Positions 280 through 58,939 of a stretch of 58,939 nucleotides of DNA are shown here, piece after piece. Below the pieces are notes generated by a model, which saw only the letters and a list, made by a program, of their open reading frames with translations, ran no database searches and had not been told where the DNA came from. Numbering within the stretch: the first letter of the stretch is position 1; each line of letters opens with the position of its first letter. The position numbers and the translations under genes were made by a program. Source of the DNA: Actinomycetes bacterium (GTDB lineage Bacteria > Actinomycetota > Acidimicrobiia > Acidimicrobiales > JANYDT01); assembly GCA_031368095.1 (NCBI GenBank), contig JANLQX010000514.1, forward strand, positions 1-58,939. Direction: 5' to 3'.

Positions 280-303
280 TAGCTGCCTTAATTCAATGGA
301 ATA

Positions 304-340
304 ATAAAGGTGTTGACAGTTATCCACCTATAACTATATT
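304..340 (+). promoter_or_regulatory. Early sigma70-type promoter P1
   Basis: ATAAAGGTG (304-312) abuts TTGACA (313-318), followed by a 16-nt spacer and TATATT (335-340). The core is nearly identical to the promoters at 54031-54067 and 57369-57405. Confidence 0.7.
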
Positions 341-1166: not shown

Positions 1167-4100
1167 AACTCATTATAACAGGCGACTGGCAATTAGACAG
1201 CAACCCAGCTTACGACAAGGTGAACCCGCTCACGAACCGGAGCACTCGCTTTGATGAAAACGTGGAAACCATCGAACGGATGCTGGATGATGGAATGGCG
1301 AAGGGTGCTGACGGGCTTCTACATCTTGGCGACCTAACCGAGAACCGCGATCCGAAGGCGATCGAAATGGCGGCGGCGGCGCGGCTTTTTGAGCATGTGT
1401 TGAGAAAGGATCGCAGAGTTTGGGGAGTAGCAGGGAATCACGACGGGAGCTTTTTCGAGGTTTCGAGCTCCAGCTTTGCCCCTCTGGCAGCCATGCGACC
1501 CGATCAATTCACCTTGTTTCACAAAGTTACCTATGACCCAGGGCTGCGCATGCTCGCGGTACCGTATATTCACCGCGCAACTCCAGCGGAGATTCGTGCT
1601 TTGGTTGAGAGCGCCTATCCGGAGGATATAGGGCACGGTCCTGTTTTCGGAGCTGTCCATTATGGTTTGCGAGGCTGCACTGTTGGCGCCAGGAACCAGG
1701 TTCTACCGGGTGATTATCTAGGCCCAGACGAATTATTAGCACGACCCCTCGATCATGTTTTTGCCGGGCACATTCATAAAGCGCAGGAAGTTGATTTGAA
1801 CGGCGTGCCAGGATGGCATCCCGGATCGCCTATTATTTGCGATATGGGGGAAAGGGTAGACCGAAAAACCTACTTACTTTTTGATACTATTAGCCGAAAG
1901 GTGGAGGTTTTCGACGTGCCAAAGCGTCGAAATTGGGTTTCCGTGGTCTATGGGCCCGATATATCCAATAAAACCCCGGAATGGGGCCCGGAAGACCTTT
2001 TAAGGGTAACCGGTACCTATGAGAAGCCCGATTACCCCAAAGGAACCTTAGAGGCGGCTTTCAAGGCGGGCCTACCACGTCCTTTTGCCCTCGAAGTTGA
2101 GGTGAAAAGCGCCAAAGTCGAAAGGGCATTAAGATCGTTATCCGTGACCAGTGCGGGAGGTTTGCGGGAGGCTTTACAAACTTATGTCCGAGAGAAATAC
2201 CCACGGCAAAGCGATACCCCTGGGCCAATCGGCCCTGCCACAGAATTGGCATTGGCCGCGCTCCAAGAGCAAGGCGGATTGAGTTACTGTTCGCAGATTT
2301 ATCCGTCCGAGATCAGCATTTCGAACTTTATGACCTTTGCAAAGCTTACCCGCCAATTTGCAACAGGAGATCCAATGCTTATCGCCGGCGAAAATGGAGT
2401 GGGGAAGACCAACTTTTTCGAAGCGATTCTGTGGGCGCTTACCGGGCGAACATCCAAAGGCCTGGACTTGGCCGGTGTGGTGAGGCAAGGGACTCAGGAA
2501 GCCGAAGTGATTATGGGTTTACTTGGAAGCAACGACGATGAGGAAGACCAGCATTTCCGGATCTCTCGATCTGTAAAGCTATCGAAGGCAGGAAAGCCGT
2601 CTCAGCGTTTGACGCTTGAAAGGATGCATCCGGTAACCCTTGCATGGGATAAAACCCTTTCCGATGGGTCCCAGGCGGAAATCCAGGGCCGGATTGACGG
2701 ATTGGTTGGCGGATCCTTTCTTACCCTACGCACCACCAATTTCAAGTTCCAAAAGGACAACAGCCCGTTTATTGCGTGCCATCCTACCGAACGAAAGGCG
2801 GTAATCGGGGAGGTCACCGGCCTTGCGCCTTTAGGAAGGGCGTTCAAAGCTTTGGACGCAAAGAGGCTGGAAAGCGCTCGGGCATTTCAGGCGGGAAAGG
2901 ATCGCCTATCCGGAATGGTTGTCGCGGGCGAGGGTAATGACTCGCAAATCGCACAGTATCGACACGACGAAGAAATTGTTTCCGCTGAAATGGAGGCGGC
3001 GCGCGCCGAGGCGCCTTTGGCAGAAGCTGTAGTGGAAGCAGCAAATGAAGCGTCACGCAAGGCCAAGAGCGAAGCCATGGAGATTGAGACGCAATACCGC
3101 GAACAGCCAAATACGGAGGCTATAGCGAAAGCTTCGGCCCAGGCGCATGCCACGTTTGAAGCGGCGTACCAATCCGGACGGGCAGAGAAGGTTAAATCGC
3201 ATGGAGCGCTGAAGGCAAGCATCGCCAGTGCCATGGCAGAGTTAACCGAAACGAAGGTGCCGACGAAGGATGAGTTACAGGTTTTGGAGGCTAATTCGGC
3301 GGCATTGACCGGCGCCAGGGAATCGCTTCGCTCCGAAATGGCTTTAGCCCGCAACGATTTATCAACCGTAGAGGTGAGGGCTTCTGCATTGGGGGCGGCT
3401 GTCGCTACCCACGGGGTTGCTTTACGGAATGCAGAACACGAGCTGCATGCCCTAGGTGAAATCCAGGCCGAAGCGGAGGTAATAGCTGCTCGGGACATGG
3501 CGGAGGCGGAAGCGGCGGAATCCGTGGAGGCCTATAATCTCGCTCTCCAGGAGTGCGTCACAGTAAGAGAAGCGGCCAAGGCTTTGGCGGATAGGGCTGC
3601 ATCACTTTTGGCAGAGAAAAGCGCTTTCTCCGGCAAGGACGTGGGGGCGTGCTCCAGGTGCGGGCAGGCAATCGACTCCACCCACATGCTAATGGAGATA
3701 GCGCGTATCGACGGAGAAATTGAAGCCAACGCGCTGCTTATTCAGGAGGTCGCAACCAAAACCAAAGAGGCTAACACGGCCTTTATTGCTTCGACCGCAA
3801 GGAAAACCACGGCACAGGAGAACGCGAAAAAAGCGAGCGAAGCGTTCCACTCCTTGAAGCTTAAAACCCAGTTACACCAATCCATGACCGTGAAAGCGCA
3901 AGATCTTAAGAATTCCTTAGCTACAGCCGAGGCTGAGCACGCCAAAAAGAAAAGCGAATCGGAAAACTTGGTTAGGGTTGTGGCTAGGGTGTATGCCGAA
4001 CTGGCTTCTTCCGAAGCTCAGGTTGCTAAGGCTATTTTAGAGGCCACGACTGCGAGAGCAAGTGTGCAAAAAGCAGAATCTACCCGGGGGAGGCTGGAAG

Positions 4101-6674: not shown

Positions 6675-6974
6675 CTATTTACGGAGGATATCAAGCACTT
6701 TTTCCAATTTATCTTTCAACATGGAAATATCCGCCTTCAGCGATCCAAGGTCGCCAGCAATCTCCTCTCTGGTGACCCAAACATTCTCGGATCTTGTCTC
6801 ATGGGGAAAGCTATCGGCATAGCCCATTCTCCTTAATTTTCCCTGAATTTTTCCGGGAACGGAAACTCTTCCGGTCTCGTACGCCGAGTAGGATTTTTGG
6901 TTAGATCCAAGTTTTTGAGCCATTTCGGTTTGCGTCAAACCCTTTTCTATACGCCAATTCTTTAAATTTTGCAT
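6675..6974 (-). CDS. XRE-family HTH repressor (CI-like)
   Basis: HTH sequence WRIEKGLTQTEMAQKLGSNQKSYSAYETGR. It is divergent from the + strand gene at 7092, and a minus-strand promoter sits just upstream. Confidence 0.8.
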   Translation of the reverse strand: MQNLKNWRIEKGLTQTEMAQKLGSNQKSYSAYETGRVSVPGKIQGKLRRMGYADSFPHETRSENVWVTREEIAGDLGSLKADISMLKDKLEKVLDILRK

Positions 6975-6986
6975 AATTTAGCCGTT

Positions 6987-7071
6987 TCTATAAATACTTT
7001 GGTAAATCCGAGCAATTACTTGACATACCCAAGTAATCTAGAGTATCTTTATGTATGTGCAATTTGGTAAA
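6987..7071. promoter_or_regulatory. Divergent immunity-switch promoters and operators
   Basis: Minus strand: -35 TTGCTC (7010-7015) and -10 TATAGA (6987-6992) with a 17-nt spacer; the -10 ends 12 nt before the repressor ATG. Plus strand: TTGACA (7020-7025), with a weak -10 TATCTT (7044-7049). The inverted repeat ATTACTTG (7015-7022) / CAAGTAAT (7030-7037) overlaps the + strand -35. TTTGGTAAA occurs at 6998-7006 and 7063-7071. Confidence 0.6.
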
Positions 7072-12319: not shown

Positions 12320-12531
12320 TGGAAGCAACATCCTCAACAAATGAATTACTCACAGCTACGGACCTTATGGACTGGCTACAGGTTGGGCCAAAATGGGTGG
12401 AGAAAAACACTCAGGCCCGCCGCATTCCCGGTCAATTCAAAGCGGGCCGTGCATGGCGCTATGACCGGGCCGCTATTGAAAAACAACGCTTAGCCACTGG
12501 CCAAATTCTCTTGCCGAAAAAGTCTAAATAA
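12316..12531 (+). CDS. xis: Excisionase / HTH_17-like DNA-binding protein
   Basis: LLTATDLMDWLQVGPKWVEKNTQARRIPGQFKAGRAWRYDRAAIE. It lies immediately upstream of and is coupled (TAATG) to the integrase. Confidence 0.65.
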   Translation: MMEATSSTNELLTATDLMDWLQVGPKWVEKNTQARRIPGQFKAGRAWRYDRAAIEKQRLATGQILLPKKSK

Positions 12532-13673
12532 TGCAACTTTATAATGGCCAGCCCATGGCGCCCATATCCGGAGGAAACTTCGCTATGGGCATTACCAAAC
12601 TAGCGCCAAACCATTTTTTCATCAAAGCACGGCATAAGACCAATGGGGAAGACCGTCGGGAACAGCTTCATTTTACTGGCACAAAAGCCCAGGCGGAAGA
12701 AAAGTACCTCGAAATCCTTAGACGCCTCCGCCGCGAAAAAAAGCCCGCTCAGGCCTTTGGCGACCTTTTAGCCGCATACTGTGAAAGCCGGGGCGGCGTT
12801 ATACCCCGGTCCCAGCGATCGATTTTCGAAGATCTTGCCAGGGATTTGGGCGGTGTAGATTTGGCGGCCATTGGCGACAAACTGCAAGAGTATGCCGGCA
12901 TACTTAGGCGGTTGCCGTCTAAAACCACGGGCCGCAAATTATCGGCTGCAAGCTTAAACCGGAGACGGGCCATGGTGGCAGCCTCATTAAACTTGGCTGT
13001 TGAGTTAAAAATTATCCCACACTCACCGCTTAACGCCGCCGTATGGCCAAAAGAGAATGAAGTCCCTCGGGATCGATTTTTGTCCCACGTCGAGTCTACG
13101 GCCCTGCTGAACGCTATTTCCATGTCGGCCCCGCACCTTTTGCCTGTGACGCAATTTGCCCTTCAAGTGCCGTGCCGCAAGGCAGAGCTTGTATCCATGA
13201 CCCGCGCCGATTTGGATCTCTTCCACAATGCGATCAGAGTCCACAACGGCACAACCAAGAACGAGGCTGGCGCATGGAAACCGATTCCTCCGAATATGGT
13301 GCCCTATTTCCGATCCATTCCTGCGGACTGTCCGTACCTTTTCTATCGCATGGAGCGCGGCCAATACGCACCCCTTGGGGATTTTAAACGATCTTGGGCG
13401 ACAGCCAAGCGTATTGCCGGAATTCAGAACCTGCGTTTTCACGATACTCGGCACATATCCGCTACTGCATTGGTGGACGCCGGCACCCCAGAAAGGGCCG
13501 TCATGGACATAGCCGGATGGCGCACAAATATGCTTTCGACTTATTATTCCAGTTCCAGCAAAAAGGCTTTAAGCCTTGTTAAATTTGGTAACGGAAGTGG
13601 CAACACAGGGGCAACTTTCGAGGGGGTTGGGCTAAAAACTGGTAAGAATGGGACAGAAAGGACGGTTTTGTAA
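12531..13673 (+). CDS. int: Tyrosine integrase
   Basis: C-terminal catalytic pattern LRFHDTRHISATALVDAGTPERAVMDIAGWRTNMLSTYY (H-x-x-R ... Y). It is followed directly by the attP tRNA fragment. Confidence 0.85.
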   Translation: MQLYNGQPMAPISGGNFAMGITKLAPNHFFIKARHKTNGEDRREQLHFTGTKAQAEEKYLEILRRLRREKKPAQAFGDLLAAYCESRGGVIPRSQRSIFEDLARDLGGVDLAAIGDKLQEYAGILRRLPSKTTGRKLSAASLNRRRAMVAASLNLAVELKIIPHSPLNAAVWPKENEVPRDRFLSHVESTALLNAISMSAPHLLPVTQFALQVPCRKAELVSMTRADLDLFHNAIRVHNGTTKNEAGAWKPIPPNMVPYFRSIPADCPYLFYRMERGQYAPLGDFKRSWATAKRIAGIQNLRFHDTRHISATALVDAGTPERAVMDIAGWRTNMLSTYYSSSSKKALSLVKFGNGSGNTGATFEGVGLKTGKNGTERTVL

Positions 13674-53770: not shown

Positions 53771-53828
53771 CAAGGGCTGCACTGCTTACGGAATTCGTCC
53801 TTCCTTTTGGCGGTGTACCTTTGGAGAT

Positions 53829-53862
53829 GGCCCGGTGAAGCAATTCGCCGGGCCATTTTTTT
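53829..53862 (+). terminator. Rho-independent terminator (end of late operon)
   Basis: GGCCCGG (53829-53835) pairs with CCGGGCC (53848-53854), followed by ATTTTTTT. Confidence 0.75.
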
Positions 53863-53883
53863 ACCTAAAATGCCTTAATTTTT

Positions 53884-53920
53884 ACCCCTATTTAAACCGC
53901 TTTAAATAGGGGTATTTTTT
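53884..53920 (+). terminator. Perfect 13-bp hairpin with CCGC tetraloop and a T-run
   Basis: ACCCCTATTTAAA-CCGC-TTTAAATAGGGGT followed by ATTTTTT. Confidence 0.7.
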
Positions 53921-53977
53921 GGGGTACTTTTAAGCATGCTCCGATCAAAAGTGCCTAGAAGCGCCTCAAAACCGGGT

Positions 53978-54011
53978 AAAATGGCTTAAATAACGCTATT
54001 TAAGCCATTTT
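53978..54011 (+). other. Perfect 15-bp AT-rich hairpin with ACGC tetraloop
   Basis: AAAATGGCTTAAATA-ACGC-TATTTAAGCCATTTT. No separate T-run lies beyond the stem. Confidence 0.6.
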
Positions 54012-54030
54012 AACGGGAAAAAGATTATTA

Positions 54031-54067
54031 ATAAAGGTGTTGACAAATACCCACCTTTAACTATATT
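54031..54067 (+). promoter_or_regulatory. Early sigma70-type promoter P2
   Basis: ATAAAGGTG (54031-54039), TTGACA (54040-54045), 16-nt spacer, TATATT (54062-54067). Confidence 0.7.
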
Positions 54068-54111
54068 CTTAAACATCGGGCAATGAAGCCCGGCAAACGC
54101 AAGGCGAACAA
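54068..54111 (+). promoter_or_regulatory. Conserved 5' leader with hairpin (copy A)
   Basis: CGGGC-AATGAA-GCCCG (54077-54092), then GCAAACGCAAGGCGAACAAATG. It is nearly identical to the leader at 57406-57449. Confidence 0.55.
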
Positions 54112-54783
54112 ATGAAAATCGTAAGAATCACAGGATCCGAATACATGACCATCAAAACCCTCTTTCACGCAGCAGATGATATTTCAAGCGGGAGACCGGT
54201 TCTTGCCGCCGTATATTACGACCCAACTATAAAATCATTGGTTGCATGCGACGGGCAGATTCTCAGGGTTCAACCCATTGCAACGGTTTTTGATACCCCG
54301 ATCTTCTTCGATCGGGAGCAATTCAAACTAAGCAAGTCCAGCCTGAAGGCAAAGTATGAAAAGGAGTGGGAAACCGTTTTGATTGACGTGCAGACGGAAT
54401 ACAACGATCGGATTTATCCCGATTATAAGCGGATCGTACCAGTGCCCAAAAGCACGGAGGATTTAAAACCTAAAGCGTGGATCGGCGTTGATTTTTACCT
54501 ATTCAATTCCTTTCTTGCGTCTTATACGGAGGATCCAGGATCGTTGGTGGTCGGGTTCAATGAGGGCCTGAAAGGCTTTACGGTTTACAATAAGGAAAAC
54601 GTTTTCCAAGGCATGATAATGCCGTGCAAGTCCGATAAATTCGCGCCATTGGCACCATTCAAAACGGAACCGGTAAAGACAGAAGCCGAAAAAGAAAAGC
54701 CCGCAAAAAAAGCGGTGGTTACTCCAATTGAAACCACAAAGCGCCCAAGAAAATCCAGGGCAAAGGCGGCGGCGGCCAAATAA
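54112..54783 (+). CDS. DnaN (beta sliding clamp)-like protein with Lys-rich C-terminal tail
   Basis: RPVLAAVYYDPTIKSLVACDGQILRV compares with RYYLNG...LRTVATDGHRLAV in DnaN. NDRIYPDYKRIVP compares with GRFPDYRRVLP. The near-C-terminal MIMPCK compares with VVMPMRL. At 223 aa it has roughly half the length of a bacterial clamp. Confidence 0.5.
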   Translation: MKIVRITGSEYMTIKTLFHAADDISSGRPVLAAVYYDPTIKSLVACDGQILRVQPIATVFDTPIFFDREQFKLSKSSLKAKYEKEWETVLIDVQTEYNDRIYPDYKRIVPVPKSTEDLKPKAWIGVDFYLFNSFLASYTEDPGSLVVGFNEGLKGFTVYNKENVFQGMIMPCKSDKFAPLAPFKTEPVKTEAEKEKPAKKAVVTPIETTKRPRKSRAKAAAAK

Positions 54784-54869
54784 CAGAATCGGGCTTGGGG
54801 GTGTTAGGCCAAGCGCGGCCGGGTGAAAGCCCGGCGTCACCAAAAAAAAGGAACAGAAAGGGAACGAAA

Positions 54870-55211
54870 ATGGAAACTGAATGGAGCGAATTTGACAGGC
54901 AAGAAATTAACGCGCAGCAAAGGCAGATCGATGAGGATCGCGAATCTGAAACGGAATTCGAATCCTGCGACATTGAGGAAATTCAAATCATTGAGCGCCC
55001 GGGTTTTGACGGCAAAACTTTGGCTACTGCCGATGTCATTTTTAAGAGCGGCATAGCTTTGAACGGCCTTAGAATACTAAAGGGGAGGTACGGACTCTTT
55101 GTGGCTTTCCCAAGCCTAGGTGGATCGATTGACGTTCTAAAAATGAGAATCAGAATGAGAATCCAGGCCGCAGTATTGCGATCGTACAAACATAAAGGAG
55201 TGATGGCATGA
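54870..55211 (+). CDS. SpoVG-like protein
   Basis: IQIIERPGFDGKTLATADVIFKSGIALNGLRILKGRYGLFVAFPS matches the SpoVG pattern (...GLFIAMPS). ATG 54870 is preferred over the upstream in-frame start. Confidence 0.55.
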   Translation: METEWSEFDRQEINAQQRQIDEDRESETEFESCDIEEIQIIERPGFDGKTLATADVIFKSGIALNGLRILKGRYGLFVAFPSLGGSIDVLKMRIRMRIQAAVLRSYKHKGVMA

Positions 55212-55444
55212 TCAAGCCTAGTTCGAATAAGTTGGAGATGTATACCGAGAGCCATGGCAGGCAGAAGCGCCTTAAAGCGGCCGATGAACTGCTCAACCAG
55301 GCTCGAAAACTGATATTCGAGGCCCAGTTTACTTTGCACAAAAAGCCAGGGTTTGAAGATGAAGCGAGAGTGGCTTGCGGAGCGATCTACGCTCTTATCT
55401 CAGACGTTCGAGAGAATATTGGATTGAGTGGGACGCATGGATAA
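55208..55444 (+). CDS. Hypothetical protein
   Basis: ATGA coupling; 78 codons. Confidence 0.5.
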   Translation: MIKPSSNKLEMYTESHGRQKRLKAADELLNQARKLIFEAQFTLHKKPGFEDEARVACGAIYALISDVRENIGLSGTHG

Positions 55445-55646
55445 GATCAGCCAGCAGGCTTTTAGTATCACCTACGCTCAAGGAACGGCTATCAGGTCAG
55501 CCGTGGTGTACGCGACAGACGAAAAAAACGCGAAGGCAGCCTTTTTAAAATGCTCTCACGCTTCAAAATCTGTTTTGCGGGTGAACAGCCTGGCTGATAG
55601 CCAGAAACAAAAGCGTGAGTCTAGTTCGTTTCGTATTATTCCATAA
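55437..55646 (+). CDS. Hypothetical protein
   Basis: ATG 55437 overlaps the upstream stop by 8 nt. Confidence 0.5.
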   Translation: MDKISQQAFSITYAQGTAIRSAVVYATDEKNAKAAFLKCSHASKSVLRVNSLADSQKQKRESSSFRIIP

Positions 55647-55748
55647 AGGTGTCGTCTATTAAACATTTTAACATTAACTTAAGGGTAAGAATATGAAAAC
55701 CAATTTAATCACGGGAACAGGCTTTTCGGAAGCCGGAAGGAGCGCTAA

Positions 55749-55928
55749 ATGAAAATCCTATTGCTACGAATACTCCACCTGGAGCGCACCATTCTAAAGC
55801 TAAAAGCCGAGATAAAGCGGAAAGACCAGGAAATTCTAGGCCTTATGGATGATCGGGCGGACGCATGTAAGCGGTATGCCAGTCTTCTACACGAATGCGA
55901 ATTGGAGGACAGCAAGTGGAAGGATTGA
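55749..55928 (+). CDS. 59-aa coiled-coil protein (below the ORF-track cutoff)
   Basis: Strong RBS GGAAGGAG lies 7 nt upstream. Translation: MKILLLRILHLERTILKLKAEIKRKDQEILGLMDDRADACKRYASLLHECELEDSKWKD. It is preceded by a coupled 19-codon ORF (55693-55752). Confidence 0.5.
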   Translation: MKILLLRILHLERTILKLKAEIKRKDQEILGLMDDRADACKRYASLLHECELEDSKWKD

Positions 55929-56326
55929 CCGAAAGGCAAACGGAAGAGCCGGTCCCACAGCCGCTTCTGGAAAGACTTAGAAACCTGTTGGCTATCCTTG
56001 AAGGTTCTGAGCTGGACAAAGACGCAGAGAAGGCTCTTTTGAGAGCGCGCATTGCCATTCTGGAGGCGGATGGAACAGCACTGATACGCCGTCTGGTAAA
56101 CAAATCAGGAAAGGACTCTGGTGCCGTGCTTGTCTTGACTAGGTTTGGGCTTTCTTGGAGGCTCCCAGATGGGTCGTGGTTGCCAGATAAGGTGTCACGG
56201 ATTCGAAGGCACGGCTTGAAGCCTGTCTTGCTCAGGACACCGGTATGGGCAAAGCTAACTCGCGGGGAGGTAGAAATCTACCCAGTTTCAGTTAACTATT
56301 TAAGCCCTTTCATCCAAGCGGCATAG
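55917..56326 (+). CDS. Hypothetical protein
   Basis: GTG 55917 follows GGAGGA. The alternative ATG 55895 is in the same frame. Confidence 0.5.
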
Positions 56327-56341
56327 GATTATTAAAAGGTA

Positions 56342-56370
56342 TTGACAATTAACGCCCTTATCAATAAATT
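56342..56370 (+). promoter_or_regulatory. Early sigma70-type promoter P4 giving a near-leaderless mRNA
   Basis: TTGACA (56342-56347), 17-nt spacer, TAAATT (56365-56370). The first ATG is at 56378 and has no SD sequence. Confidence 0.55.
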
Positions 56371-56377
56371 GAAAACC

Positions 56378-56845
56378 ATGAGACTACCCCCGAATCCAAA
56401 CTACCTGGCTGAAATTGCAGCCACCCGTGAAATGGTTCTGACCGCAAGAGCAAAGCGCGGCAATGTATCCCTGGCCGTGATCGCCTCGGAATGCGGCCTG
56501 CATTCAAACCTTGTTATGCGAGTCATGAGCCCAAAGCCAGATACCGGAGAATCTTCCTATACGCCTACCAAGGGAACAGTGGACGCGCTTAGATCGTGGG
56601 CAGAGAAGAATAAGAAGGCCAAGACTGTTGCGCCGGAAAAAGTTCAGAAGGACTTAGGGGCCAGGATCAGGTCGGCTTATGAGGTGAAAAAAGCCCGTGG
56701 TATGAATGCCGAGGAAATGGCGATGGCGGCAGGGGTTAACCGCACAGTGTTTTCGCAGTTGATGAATGGTTCGTATACGCGAACCCTGCGGCCAACCACT
56801 CTGAAGTCATTGAACGCATGGACGGATAAAGCGCTTCGACAATAG
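56378..56845 (+). CDS. Double-HTH DNA-binding regulator candidate
   Basis: Two HTH-like segments: SLAVIASECGLHSNLVMRVMS and MNAEEMAMAAGVNRTVFSQLMNG. Confidence 0.55.
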   Translation: MRLPPNPNYLAEIAATREMVLTARAKRGNVSLAVIASECGLHSNLVMRVMSPKPDTGESSYTPTKGTVDALRSWAEKNKKAKTVAPEKVQKDLGARIRSAYEVKKARGMNAEEMAMAAGVNRTVFSQLMNGSYTRTLRPTTLKSLNAWTDKALRQ

Positions 56846-56859
56846 AGCGCACGCCCGTC

Positions 56860-57162
56860 TTATCTAGGGATGATAGAGCGCTTCGCTGGCATATCTTTGA
56901 TCTTCCGCTTTTTGAAATACTCTTCCAGTATCAAGTACTGAGCTTCGTATATTGGGATGTTCTCCCAGTAGGCCAAACACTTGATTAAATAAAGATGATC
57001 CTTATGGATGACTGCGGAGTGTCTCCGGAACCCTGCCGGAAGATACTTGCTGTCCTTCGGACCTTCTCCAATGGCATCCTCGATTTTTTGGTCCTGAAGC
57101 GAAGGCTTTTTTGGGGCTGCTATGTGGGCGTCTTCTCTTCTCAGTGCATTTGATTTTGCCAT
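56860..57162 (-). CDS. Hypothetical protein (one of three minus-strand genes)
   Basis: 100 codons, convergent with the HTH gene. Tandem short repeats lie upstream of it. Confidence 0.5.
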   Translation of the reverse strand: MAKSNALRREDAHIAAPKKPSLQDQKIEDAIGEGPKDSKYLPAGFRRHSAVIHKDHLYLIKCLAYWENIPIYEAQYLILEEYFKKRKIKDMPAKRSIIPR

Positions 57163-57317
57163 AAACGGATCCGTCCTTTTGTGGCATGAAAAATGCCGAA
57201 ATCGATTACGCCTTAATTTAGTGAAATCAGTGTATTAAGACGTCTCGGAAAAATACTTCCATGGTTTAACGAGCGTCAAATATTGGTCATTTATTGCCCT
57301 AAAAAGATGGCCTTACA

Positions 57318-57353
57318 TTCGGTAATTTCGGTAATTTGAGGGAAAATTGAGGT
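57318..57353. repeat. Tandem short repeats between the minus-strand gene and promoter P3
   Basis: TTCGGTAAT x2 (57318-57326, 57327-57335), then ATTTGAGG (57334-57341) and AATTGAGG (57346-57353). Confidence 0.6.
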
Positions 57354-57368
57354 TTGGCATGTGCATTA

Positions 57369-57405
57369 ATAAAGGGGTTGACAATTATACACCGTTCTAT
57401 ATATT
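57369..57405 (+). promoter_or_regulatory. Early sigma70-type promoter P3
   Basis: ATAAAGGGG (57369-57377), TTGACA (57378-57383), 16-nt spacer, TATATT (57400-57405). Confidence 0.7.
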
Positions 57406-57449
57406 CTTAATCATCGGGTAATAAAGCCCGGCAAACGCAAGGCGAAAAA
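57406..57449 (+). promoter_or_regulatory. Conserved 5' leader with hairpin (copy B)
   Basis: CGGGT-AATAAA-GCCCG (57415-57430). The C-to-T change relative to copy A keeps pairing as G-U. It is followed by GCAAACGCAAGGCGAAAAAATG. Confidence 0.55.
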
Positions 57450-57917
57450 ATGGAAACCAAGAAAATCAAAGGCCAATCCTACATAGTCTATCCAAATGGC
57501 GTGATGGTCCCGGCCGGCTTGGTTAACGAATCTCCTAATAAAATCAGAACCCCGAAAGACATTCTCCCTTTGCTAGAGTCGGAAAAATTTATGAAGCAAG
57601 AGACCGTGATCGTTTTTACTCTCGACGGAAACAACCAGGTGATTAAAAAGCACATCGTAACCATCGGCCTTGCAAACCAGGCGCATATCCACCCGAGGGA
57701 ATGTTTTGCACCGGCTTTTGAGGATAGAGCGGTTTCAATATTCCTGGCCCATAACCACCCATCCGGAAATGTTGAACCAAGCGAGGCAGATCTTGTTGCC
57801 ACCAAAAGGATGGCAGAAGCCGGTAAGCTTTTGGGTATTCCGTTGATCGATCATATTATCGTGTCCCAGAACGGGTACAATTCGCTGCGCGATATGCGCC
57901 CAGACATGTTCGTATAA
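57450..57917 (+). CDS. radC: RadC-like JAB/MPN+ domain protein
   Basis: HPRECFAPAFEDRAVSIFLAHNHPSGNVEPSEADLVATKRMAEAGKLLGIPLIDHIIV, including the HNHPSG...S..D JAMM motif. Confidence 0.85.
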   Translation: METKKIKGQSYIVYPNGVMVPAGLVNESPNKIRTPKDILPLLESEKFMKQETVIVFTLDGNNQVIKKHIVTIGLANQAHIHPRECFAPAFEDRAVSIFLAHNHPSGNVEPSEADLVATKRMAEAGKLLGIPLIDHIIVSQNGYNSLRDMRPDMFV

Positions 57918-57947
57918 AAACCAAAACACAACCCAAGGAGAATTGAA

Positions 57948-58142
57948 ATGATCAGGCCATTTACTGTTACGGAATTGAATTTGTTAGCTGACATTATTTC
58001 TAAGGATTCTGAATCCCTAGAAAATGATTTAGAGTACTTCCCGAAATCGGAAAGGCGAGATATAAAAAGGGGGCTGGCCCGCCGCTTGAGGCTGGCCAGG
58101 CGTGTTGCTGGCATGATTCAATTAAAAAAGGAGATCAAATAA
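57948..58142 (+). CDS. Hypothetical small protein
   Basis: RBS AAGGAG upstream. Coupled by TAATG to the DUF3560 gene. Confidence 0.55.
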   Translation: MIRPFTVTELNLLADIISKDSESLENDLEYFPKSERRDIKRGLARRLRLARRVAGMIQLKKEIK

Positions 58143-58939
58143 TGGAACAGATGCAATTTATAAACGACATCCCCAGGAACTTGGCAATAGCAGCCCATGC
58201 GGGAACCAGCTTTGTGCCGGAAAGGCGCGGGGACGCAGAGCGAGAGTCCTACGCTTCCGAAATGGCGGCGGACTATGCAAGGCTGGCCAAGCACGCTGAC
58301 ACCCCAGAAAAGCAGGCGCAACTAGAAGAAGAGTTTGCTAGGTATCGAACGGGGTATGCGGCCAGAACCAGGCTATACCTTTCCGCAAGGTCTAGGTGCC
58401 TGTCAACAATGATAACTGGCCCTTCAAATTTCAATACTCGCAGGAACACCAAAGCCAACAATTCCGAGCGCAACAAACTGGATGAATTGGTTGGATTCAG
58501 AGAGCGGGCTTTAAAGGCGATTATAAAGAAAATGCACCCTGAGCTCAGGCCTATAATGGCTGGTGATGGCGATGCACTGGAGCGCCTGCAAGAAAAGCTG
58601 GATACGCTGGAATCCAACCAGGAAATGATGGTCGCAGTAAACGCCACTATACGCAAGTACGCCAAGGAAGGGGCGGAAGCCCAGGTGGCCGGATTGATTG
58701 ATCTGGGGGTTTCTAGGGTCAGAGCTGTCGCGCTTCTCGTCCCGGATTTTTGTAAGCGAATCGGCTTTCCATCCTACTCTCTGACCAACAACGGCGCAAA
58801 TATTCGGCGACTCAAAGGGCGCTTGGAAGCCCTTTCCAAAACTAAGACCCAAGAGGAAACGGAAACGATCGGCGAAGCCGCCACCGTGAACGATTGCCCG
58901 GCAGAAAACAGGATCCGCTTGACGTTCCCGGGCAAGCCC
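58142..58939 (+). CDS. DUF3560-like protein, N-terminal part (runs off the window end and continues at 1..279)
   Basis: ATG 58142 with no stop before 58939. The joined gene is 312 codons. Confidence 0.7.
   Translation, partial: MEQMQFINDIPRNLAIAAHAGTSFVPERRGDAERESYASEMAADYARLAKHADTPEKQAQLEEEFARYRTGYAARTRLYLSARSRCLSTMITGPSNFNTRRNTKANNSERNKLDELVGFRERALKAIIKKMHPELRPIMAGDGDALERLQEKLDTLESNQEMMVAVNATIRKYAKEGAEAQVAGLIDLGVSRVRAVALLVPDFCKRIGFPSYSLTNNGANIRRLKGRLEALSKTKTQEETETIGEAATVNDCPAENRIRLTFPGKP
58799..58939. repeat. Terminal direct repeat copy 2 (identical to 1-141)
   Basis: Exact duplicate of the window start. Consistent with circular assembly overlap or terminal redundancy. Confidence 0.95.

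Follow-up and report, generated by a model that had tools for sequence, protein, structure and literature searches.

Within the window analysed here, a stretch of 58,939 nucleotides, a promoter and the whole of its untranslated leader occur twice, ahead of two different genes, and both leaders contain a short inverted repeat that could fold into a hairpin. The locus raises the question of what such a repeated leader is for, and whether it would act as RNA, as duplex DNA or not at all. The original prediction saw in it an early control cassette, its hairpin preserved by a compensatory change. We find that the duplicated promoter-hairpin leader is real but ordinary.

The window is one whole contig from a metagenome bin of 515 contigs. 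A repeat comparison finds 141 identical nt at its start and end, giving a unit of 58,798 bp that closes on itself. Circular contigs keep an overlap of exactly 141 nt when the largest k-mer of the assembler is 141; by this inference the repeat looks like a circular-assembly overlap, so that the contig does not show where the phage DNA physically ends. Nearly all phage genes are on the + strand. The encoded terminase shares about 37% identity with its counterpart in Aggregatibacter phages, and there are genes for an SbcCD-like fusion and a Gp3-like protein; no tRNA genes were found in the phage genome. Because an integrase and a helix-turn-helix (HTH) repressor are also encoded, the phage is considered temperate, and by its gene content the contig is a complete temperate phage genome. 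The bin is an unreliable guide to its host: the GC content of the phage contig is 49.4%, against 63.9% for the bin (a gap of 14.5 points; the fifth percentile of the bin is 60.5%), and neither blastn nor short-word matching found sequence shared with the other 514 contigs. As the contig and the bin have neither sequence nor spacers in common, a host assignment taken from the bin was rejected. The contig, which is the longest of the bin and has its second-lowest GC content, is probably mis-binned.

Four promoters are considered here, P1 to P4, with coordinates in Table 1. By their hexamers and spacing (a -35 element near TTGACA, a -10 element near TATAAT and 16-18 bp between them), P1, P2 and P3 are predicted sigma-70-type, or housekeeping, promoters. 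The pattern TTGACA-N15-19-TATAWT is found three times in 58.9 kb (at 313, 54040 and 57378), always on the + strand, against 0.04 occurrences expected by chance. All three are exact copies of TTGACA-N16-TATATT and agree with the consensus at 11 of 12 positions, which makes them near-consensus. Over its promoter (302-340), P1 has 90% identity to P2; as had been proposed, it has the promoter core and part of the spacer without the leader, the motif CTTAAAC being kept and displaced by 5 nt. Its own leader is short and unstructured, contains no hairpin and runs to a GTG at 366 with GGAGG ahead of this start; it would serve the Gp3-like gene, followed by the SbcCD-like fusion. P4 has a related box and a different -10 hexamer. 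An ATG at 56378 lies 8 nt past the -10 of P4, with no Shine-Dalgarno (SD) sequence, so the 155-aa HTH protein (56378-56845) would be translated from a leaderless mRNA; the start listed by the ORF finder, a TTG at 56342, falls inside the -35 of P4. One uncultivated temperate phage would thus combine four host-type promoters with three 5' architectures, namely a hairpin with SD, a short leader with SD and no leader at all. The label "early" for these promoters is an unproven assumption, because the phage is temperate, its genome ends are undefined and no repressor operator overlaps the promoters.

Table 1. Coordinates of predicted features in the window, in order of position.
Feature	Position	Strand	Details
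P1 upstream box and core promoter	302..340	+	box at 302-312
Small HTH repressor	6675-6974	-	
Tyrosine integrase	12531-13673		
Strong intrinsic terminator	53883..53914	+	14-bp stem and T run; closes the tail-gene unit upstream of P2
P2 A-rich upstream box	54029..54039	+	TAATAAAGGTG; UP-element-like, abuts the -35
P2 core promoter	54040..54067	+	TTGACA, 16-nt spacer, TATATT; 11/12 consensus
P2 leader	54068..54111	+	44 nt, from -10 to ATG; 40/44 identical to P3 leader
P2 hairpin	54077..54092	+	CGGGC-AATGAA-GCCCG; 5 G-C pairs, 6-nt loop; optional U54076-G54093 wobble
P2 SD-like sequence, spacer and ATG	54101..54114	+	AAGGCG (54101-54106), 5-nt spacer AACAA, ATG
223-aa ORFan	54112-54783	+	first gene after P2; Lys/Ala-rich tail
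SpoVG-like protein	54795-55211		P2 unit; PF04026, 1.2e-6, just below the gathering score
P4	56330..56380	+	promoter 56330-56370; related box TTATTAAAAGGTA, TTGACA, 17-nt spacer, TAAATT
100-aa ORF	56860-57162	-	convergent with the P2/P4 unit; flanked by HTH gene and P3
P3 upstream box and core promoter	57367..57405	+	box TAATAAAGGGG (57367-57377), TTGACA, 16-nt spacer, TATATT
P3 leader	57406..57449	+	paralogue of P2 leader; ends at the radC ATG
P3 hairpin	57415..57430	+	CGGGT-AATAAA-GCCCG; 4 G-C pairs and one U-G, 6-nt loop
radC	57450-57917	+	first gene after P3; PF04002, 7.5e-37
64-aa protein	57948-58142		after radC; C-terminal Arg-rich stretch KSERRDIKRGLARRLRLARRV

The repeat finder aligns 54027-54134 with 57365-57472, 108 nt that are 82% identical without a gap, at an offset of 3338 nt, and BLAST within the genome gives the pair an E-value of 7e-25. 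The duplicated promoter-plus-leader cassette, described beforehand as about 80% identical between 54026-54111 and 57366-57449, is confirmed and lies far beyond chance; all the sequence strings quoted for it are present at their places. The likeness is unevenly spread. Upstream of -50, that is, upstream of the TAATAAAGG box, P2 and P3 are 24% identical, which is background. The box itself, TAATAAAGG(T/G)G, matches at 10 of 11 positions and the -35 and -10 hexamers at 6 of 6 each, with 9 of 16 in the spacer between them. The leader follows with 40 of 44, the first 30 nt of the coding sequences with 16 of 30 and the next 60 nt with 35%. The leader is thus better conserved than the promoter spacer (Fisher p=0.005) and than a combined set of spacer and first 30 coding nt (25/46; p = 1e-4). 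This suggests that the leader as a whole is under sequence constraint, at either the RNA or the DNA level; if the block was copied once, the leader would have been held about as tightly as the two hexamers. Because the promoters are mosaic, P1 and P2 sharing the spacer (CCACCT.TAAC) and P2 and P3 the leader, recombination among promoter copies is an alternative source of this pattern. A search of the genome for the 21-mer GCCCGGCAAACGCAAGGCGAA, which belongs to the 3' part of the leader, found the two leaders alone, with up to three mismatches allowed and both strands covered. The likeness of the cassettes also reaches the first eight codons of two unrelated genes (54112-54136 and 57450-57474, encoding MKIVRITG and METKKIKG); it seems that the copied block took in a coding-region start, or that both starts were selected to be A-rich.

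Given the usual distance of 6-8 nt from the -10 (54062-54067 in P2), transcription is predicted to start at 54073-54075 from P2 and at 57411-57413 from P3. The predicted P2 RNA would read (A)CAU-CGGGC-AAUGAA-GCCCG-GCAAACGC-AAGGCG-AACAA-AUG. Its stem begins 10 nt past the -10, corresponding to +3 to +5, and 2-4 unpaired nucleotides would precede it. The linker GCAAACGC, 8 nt of single strand from the hairpin to the SD, is identical in both copies, and the distance from AAGGCG to the ATG is typical of other genes of this phage, which use AAGGAG or GGAGG. That a hairpin is possible in both leaders, as originally proposed, is upheld by RNAfold, which predicts a 5-bp stem in each; the bare 16-nt stem-loops have calculated energies of -8.5 (P2) and -6.6 kcal/mol (P3). 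In transcripts of 60-100 nt, the stem pairs are predicted to form with a probability of 0.95-1.0 (P2) or 0.87-0.98 (P3); lengthening the P3 transcript to 150 nt lets a long-range alternative fold displace the hairpin, and the pair probability falls to 0.04. Compared with dinucleotide shuffles, the 41-nt leaders have z-scores of -2.2 (P2) and -1.8 (P3); 5 and 9 of 200 shuffles, respectively, gave folds as good. The leader is thus predicted to fold somewhat better than chance, not strikingly so, and its two copies cannot be counted as independent. For the SD, unpaired probabilities of 0.35-0.60 predict a half-open state in every context. Exact matches to CGGGY-N6-GCCCG occur in the genome only at the two leaders.

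Several known types of element could be set aside. Neither leader is matched by the Rfam 15 covariance models at E-values up to 5; membership of a curated Rfam family was rejected, and for this reason nothing points to a more elaborate riboregulator. A trans-acting antisense RNA was rejected since the genome contains no complementary site on either strand with up to three mismatches, and a minus-strand terminator was rejected since no T run follows the stem on that strand. The P2 leader contains an upstream ORF of 10 codons (54083-54115, MKPGKRKANK), which starts in the hairpin loop and whose TGA overlaps the main ATG (ATGA). A function for this ORF was rejected, as the P3 copy has ATA for its ATG and TGG for its stop.

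The claim that the hairpin has been preserved by a compensatory change does not hold. Between the two copies, four of the five pairs are invariant and one has changed on one side, from C-G to U-G; there is no two-sided change. The difference is one wobble-compatible difference, not a compensatory change. When the two-leader alignment is scored for pair covariation, 500 of 500 shuffles reach the observed value. Five of the 30 possible single substitutions in the stem keep the pairing (17%), all of them C to U, and the proportion rises to about 25-33% if transitions are favoured. Because a lone pairing-keeping change is expected by chance in about one-sixth to one-third of cases, it is next to uninformative. 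Nor does the stem stand out in conservation, with one change in 10 nt against three in 34 for the other leader positions. The proposed search for covariation in homologous regions likewise gave no support: no homologues were found in the collections searched, and the two paralogous copies show double changes at 0 of 5 pairs. A conserved leader had also been taken to imply common post-transcriptional control; such control is possible but not implied, because a DNA operator or plain mRNA stabilisation would fit equally well.

The first genes behind the two leaders are unrelated. That radC is the first gene of the P3 unit is borne out by its Pfam match; a DUF3560-like gene belongs to the same block. 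The "clamp-like" label given to the first P2 gene could not be substantiated: this 223-aa ORF has no Pfam match, no PDB sequence match with E of 1 or lower and no homologue in 5.8 billion proteins, leaving a weak match to PHROG 3007, annotated as RusA-like (6e-5). The 155-aa HTH protein of the P2 unit matches HTH_31 (3.9e-4) and a PHROG annotated as 'transcriptional repressor' (1.8e-5). By its Arg-rich stretch, the 64-aa protein of the P3 unit may bind nucleic acid. No terminator is predicted between the P2/P4 unit and the 100-aa minus-strand ORF and the two are convergent, so transcription from P2 and P4 would enter this ORF in antisense.

Relatives of the cassette were sought widely. There was no blastn match to 53800-58939 among 50,697 phage records, and none to the 5-kb region in 200 genomes related to the bin. 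A pattern scan of 185,579 species genomes, one per species, returned 29 stretches, all of them chance matches; the same scan of metagenome contigs from JGI and ENA returned 90, again all by chance, at most 55 of 109 positions being identical and the promoter absent. From IMG/VR, exact-pattern scans returned one chance match inside a coding region and one unrelated phage whose likeness is limited to the promoter box, and a 419-aa protein of the tail region has no IMG/VR homologue. Homologues of RadC are at most 46% identical; the two closest have unrelated upstream regions, and the promoter-leader pattern is absent from all RadC-homologue loci fetched.

The explanation that we favour, with a probability of roughly 40%, is a duplicated promoter and 5'-UTR module in which a 5'-terminal stem-loop would protect the mRNA. 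It builds on what the sequence shows: two copies of the cassette, consensus-like promoters, a predicted fold and a leader conserved above the spacer. A near-consensus sigma-70 promoter (A-rich box, TTGACA, 16 nt, TATATT) would be fused to a compact 5' UTR; the RNA would begin with 2-4 unpaired bases, continue with a GC-rich 5-bp stem-loop and an 8-nt linker, and reach AAGGCG and the ATG. The paired 5' end would hinder decay that depends on the 5' end, by RppH and RNase E or, in other hosts, by RNase J, and the stem-loop and ribosome-binding site together would give the 223-aa ORFan and RadC the same high, long-lived expression. Here we infer where transcription starts, that the hairpin forms in vivo and that it affects stability at all. 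5' secondary structure has long been known to stabilise mRNA (Emory et al. 1992, Bouvet and Belasco 1992 and Arnold et al. 1998, as summarised in a review, PMC3997798), an effect due to the need of RppH and RNase E for single-stranded 5' termini; for B. subtilis RppH the minimum is two unpaired 5' bases, with three or more preferred (PMC3997798). A role as RNA is also slightly favoured by the wobble pairs, because the U-G pair of the second copy and the possible U-G closing pair of both copies would work in + strand RNA only, not in duplex DNA. Against a stabiliser, the stem alone would suffice for it, leaving the identical linker unexplained; the stem is short and is displaced in the 150-nt context of P3; its sole difference between the copies is one-sided; P1 and P4 have no hairpin at all; and the bin, given the GC content of the contig and the lack of shared sequence, gives no reliable clue to the host and hence to its set of RNases.

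The element nevertheless resembles, by analogy, known 5'-terminal stabilising hairpins joined to strong host-type phage promoters, and belongs to no sequence family. The 5' UTRs of E. coli ompA and papA and the leader of B. subtilis aprE likewise have a stable hairpin a few nucleotides from the 5' end, followed by the ribosome-binding site. Their mechanism is known, the hairpin blocking RppH and RNase E, or RNase J (PMC3997798). The phage leader differs from these in that it has no sequence kinship with them, its start site is predicted and it has been duplicated together with its promoter. On the promoter side, a comparison may be made with phage T7. Its A1, A2 and A3 promoters are strong host-type early promoters in tandem, repeated arrangement. 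Like them, several near-consensus sigma-70 promoters with related flanks point here in the same direction ahead of non-structural genes; unlike them, the promoters lie kilobases apart, each heads its own gene block, two share a whole 5' UTR and the phage is temperate. The module of about 85 nt might serve as a strong expression cassette; beyond annotation, its importance is slight.

Among the alternatives, the inverted repeat could be an operator read in duplex DNA. A dimeric phage regulator would bind CGGGC-N6-GCCCG and block P2 and P3 together, with P1 and P4 escaping; a candidate is the 155-aa HTH protein, from its leaderless P4 transcript inside the P2 unit. The geometry is suitable, with 5-bp arms whose centres are separated by 11 bp, roughly a helical turn, adjoining the promoter and with the dyad at about +11.5 of the predicted start. 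The lac operator O1 is centred at +11, and the repeat resembles it in that its centre lies about 11 bp past the predicted start; it differs in having arms of only 5 bp, imperfect in one copy, and no known cognate protein. Within the genome the inverted repeat is confined to the two promoters with the shared leader, one of the two units encodes an HTH protein with a repressor-like PHROG match, and in a temperate phage some control of strong promoters is expected. However, the symmetry is broken in the second copy (CGGGT/GCCCG), the palindrome extends no further than 5 bp per side, a genome-wide pattern scan found no further copy at the gene of either regulator, the palindrome of the immunity switch is unrelated (TTACTTG-N7-CAAGTAA) and the perfect identity of the 20 nt downstream would not be accounted for. 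We consider this operator unlikely. The same verdict applies to the idea that the hairpin by itself does nothing: a segment of promoter, leader and start would have been copied once by recombination between promoters, the stem being an accident and the leader staying alike through constraint on the start and ribosome-binding regions. The extension of the likeness by about 25 nt into two unrelated coding regions (16/30) is as expected for a copied block, and the mosaic pattern of the promoters (P1/P2 spacer, P2/P3 leader), the stem's rate of change, the zero covariation and the presumable functioning of P1 and P4 without a hairpin agree with it. It fits less well that the spacer and the coding start have fallen to 53-56% identity with the leader still at 91%, at the significance given above, and that a 5-bp stem entirely of G-C pairs, as in P2, is uncommon, as the low number of shuffles that fold as well indicates.

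Protein binding to the RNA would explain the invariant linker. In this case, a phage RNA-binding protein would read the hairpin and linker beside the SD and repress or activate both first genes, candidates being the SpoVG-like protein of the P2 unit and the 64-aa protein of the P3 unit with its Arg-rich C-terminus. Models for such translational operators are those of T4 gene 43 and RegA and the MS2 coat-protein hairpin. It is the sequence of stem, linker and SD region that is conserved, and not pairing alone, which fits sequence-specific RNA binding, and the hairpin ends 8 nt ahead of the SD. On the other hand, the binding proteins are candidates only, the hairpin overlaps neither the SD nor the AUG, the SD would be half open in any case, and with two paralogous copies the conservation may reflect the age of the duplication together with constraints on translation initiation; we regard a translational operator as distinctly unlikely. 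A broader version, to which we give equally little credence, makes the shared leader (hairpin, linker and SD region) a recognition site for a phage nucleic-acid-binding protein that would tie the ORFan/SpoVG-like and RadC/DUF3560-like blocks into one switch of an undescribed kind. The SpoVG-like, the leaderless HTH and the Arg-rich 64-aa proteins, all encoded inside the two units, are candidates for binding it. If the leader is a protein-binding site, it would group genes of an establishment or anti-defence type (RadC, DUF3560-like) into a small regulon, which no present finding requires. Finally, the hairpin with its A-rich loop might act like lambda boxB and load a phage antiterminator at both operons. 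The nutL and nutR sites of lambda are paralogous, lie in two operons and have a 5-bp GC-rich stem and a purine-rich loop that differs at one position, the boxB of nutR being agcccugaaaaagggc (PMC2724277). There is a formal parallel in the promoter-proximal, paralogous hairpins at two operons of a temperate phage, with A-rich loops (AAUGAA and AAUAAA) differing by one base, and in the small Arg-rich protein of the P3 unit. Unlike the lambda sites, neither leader contains a boxA (CGCUCUUA or UGCUCUUUA); the nearest + strand match, at 53994-54002, is upstream of the P2 -35 and so outside the P2 transcript. [quoted passage not shown] A nut site of the lambda type was rejected on boxA, pentaloop boxB and downstream terminators alike, and a nut-like site of any kind is highly improbable.

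Two further observations concern P3. The phage found in IMG/VR, IMGVR_UViG_3300017963_000365, has at 3237-3274 on its minus strand TTTAATAAAGGGGTTGACA-N16-TATATT, identical to the box and hexamers of P3. A tblastx comparison of 13.5 kb of this phage with the window revealed no similarity; the two phages may infect the same host group, or they may have converged on a strong-promoter consensus. About 45 nt upstream of the -35 of P3 there is a tandem repeat of TTCGGTAAT (57318-57335), and TTTGGTAAA flanks the immunity switch (6998-7006 and 7063-7071). The pattern TTYGGTAAW occurs seven times in the genome, against 2.2 expected, and may represent a shared protein-binding site tying P3 to the lysis-lysogeny switch.
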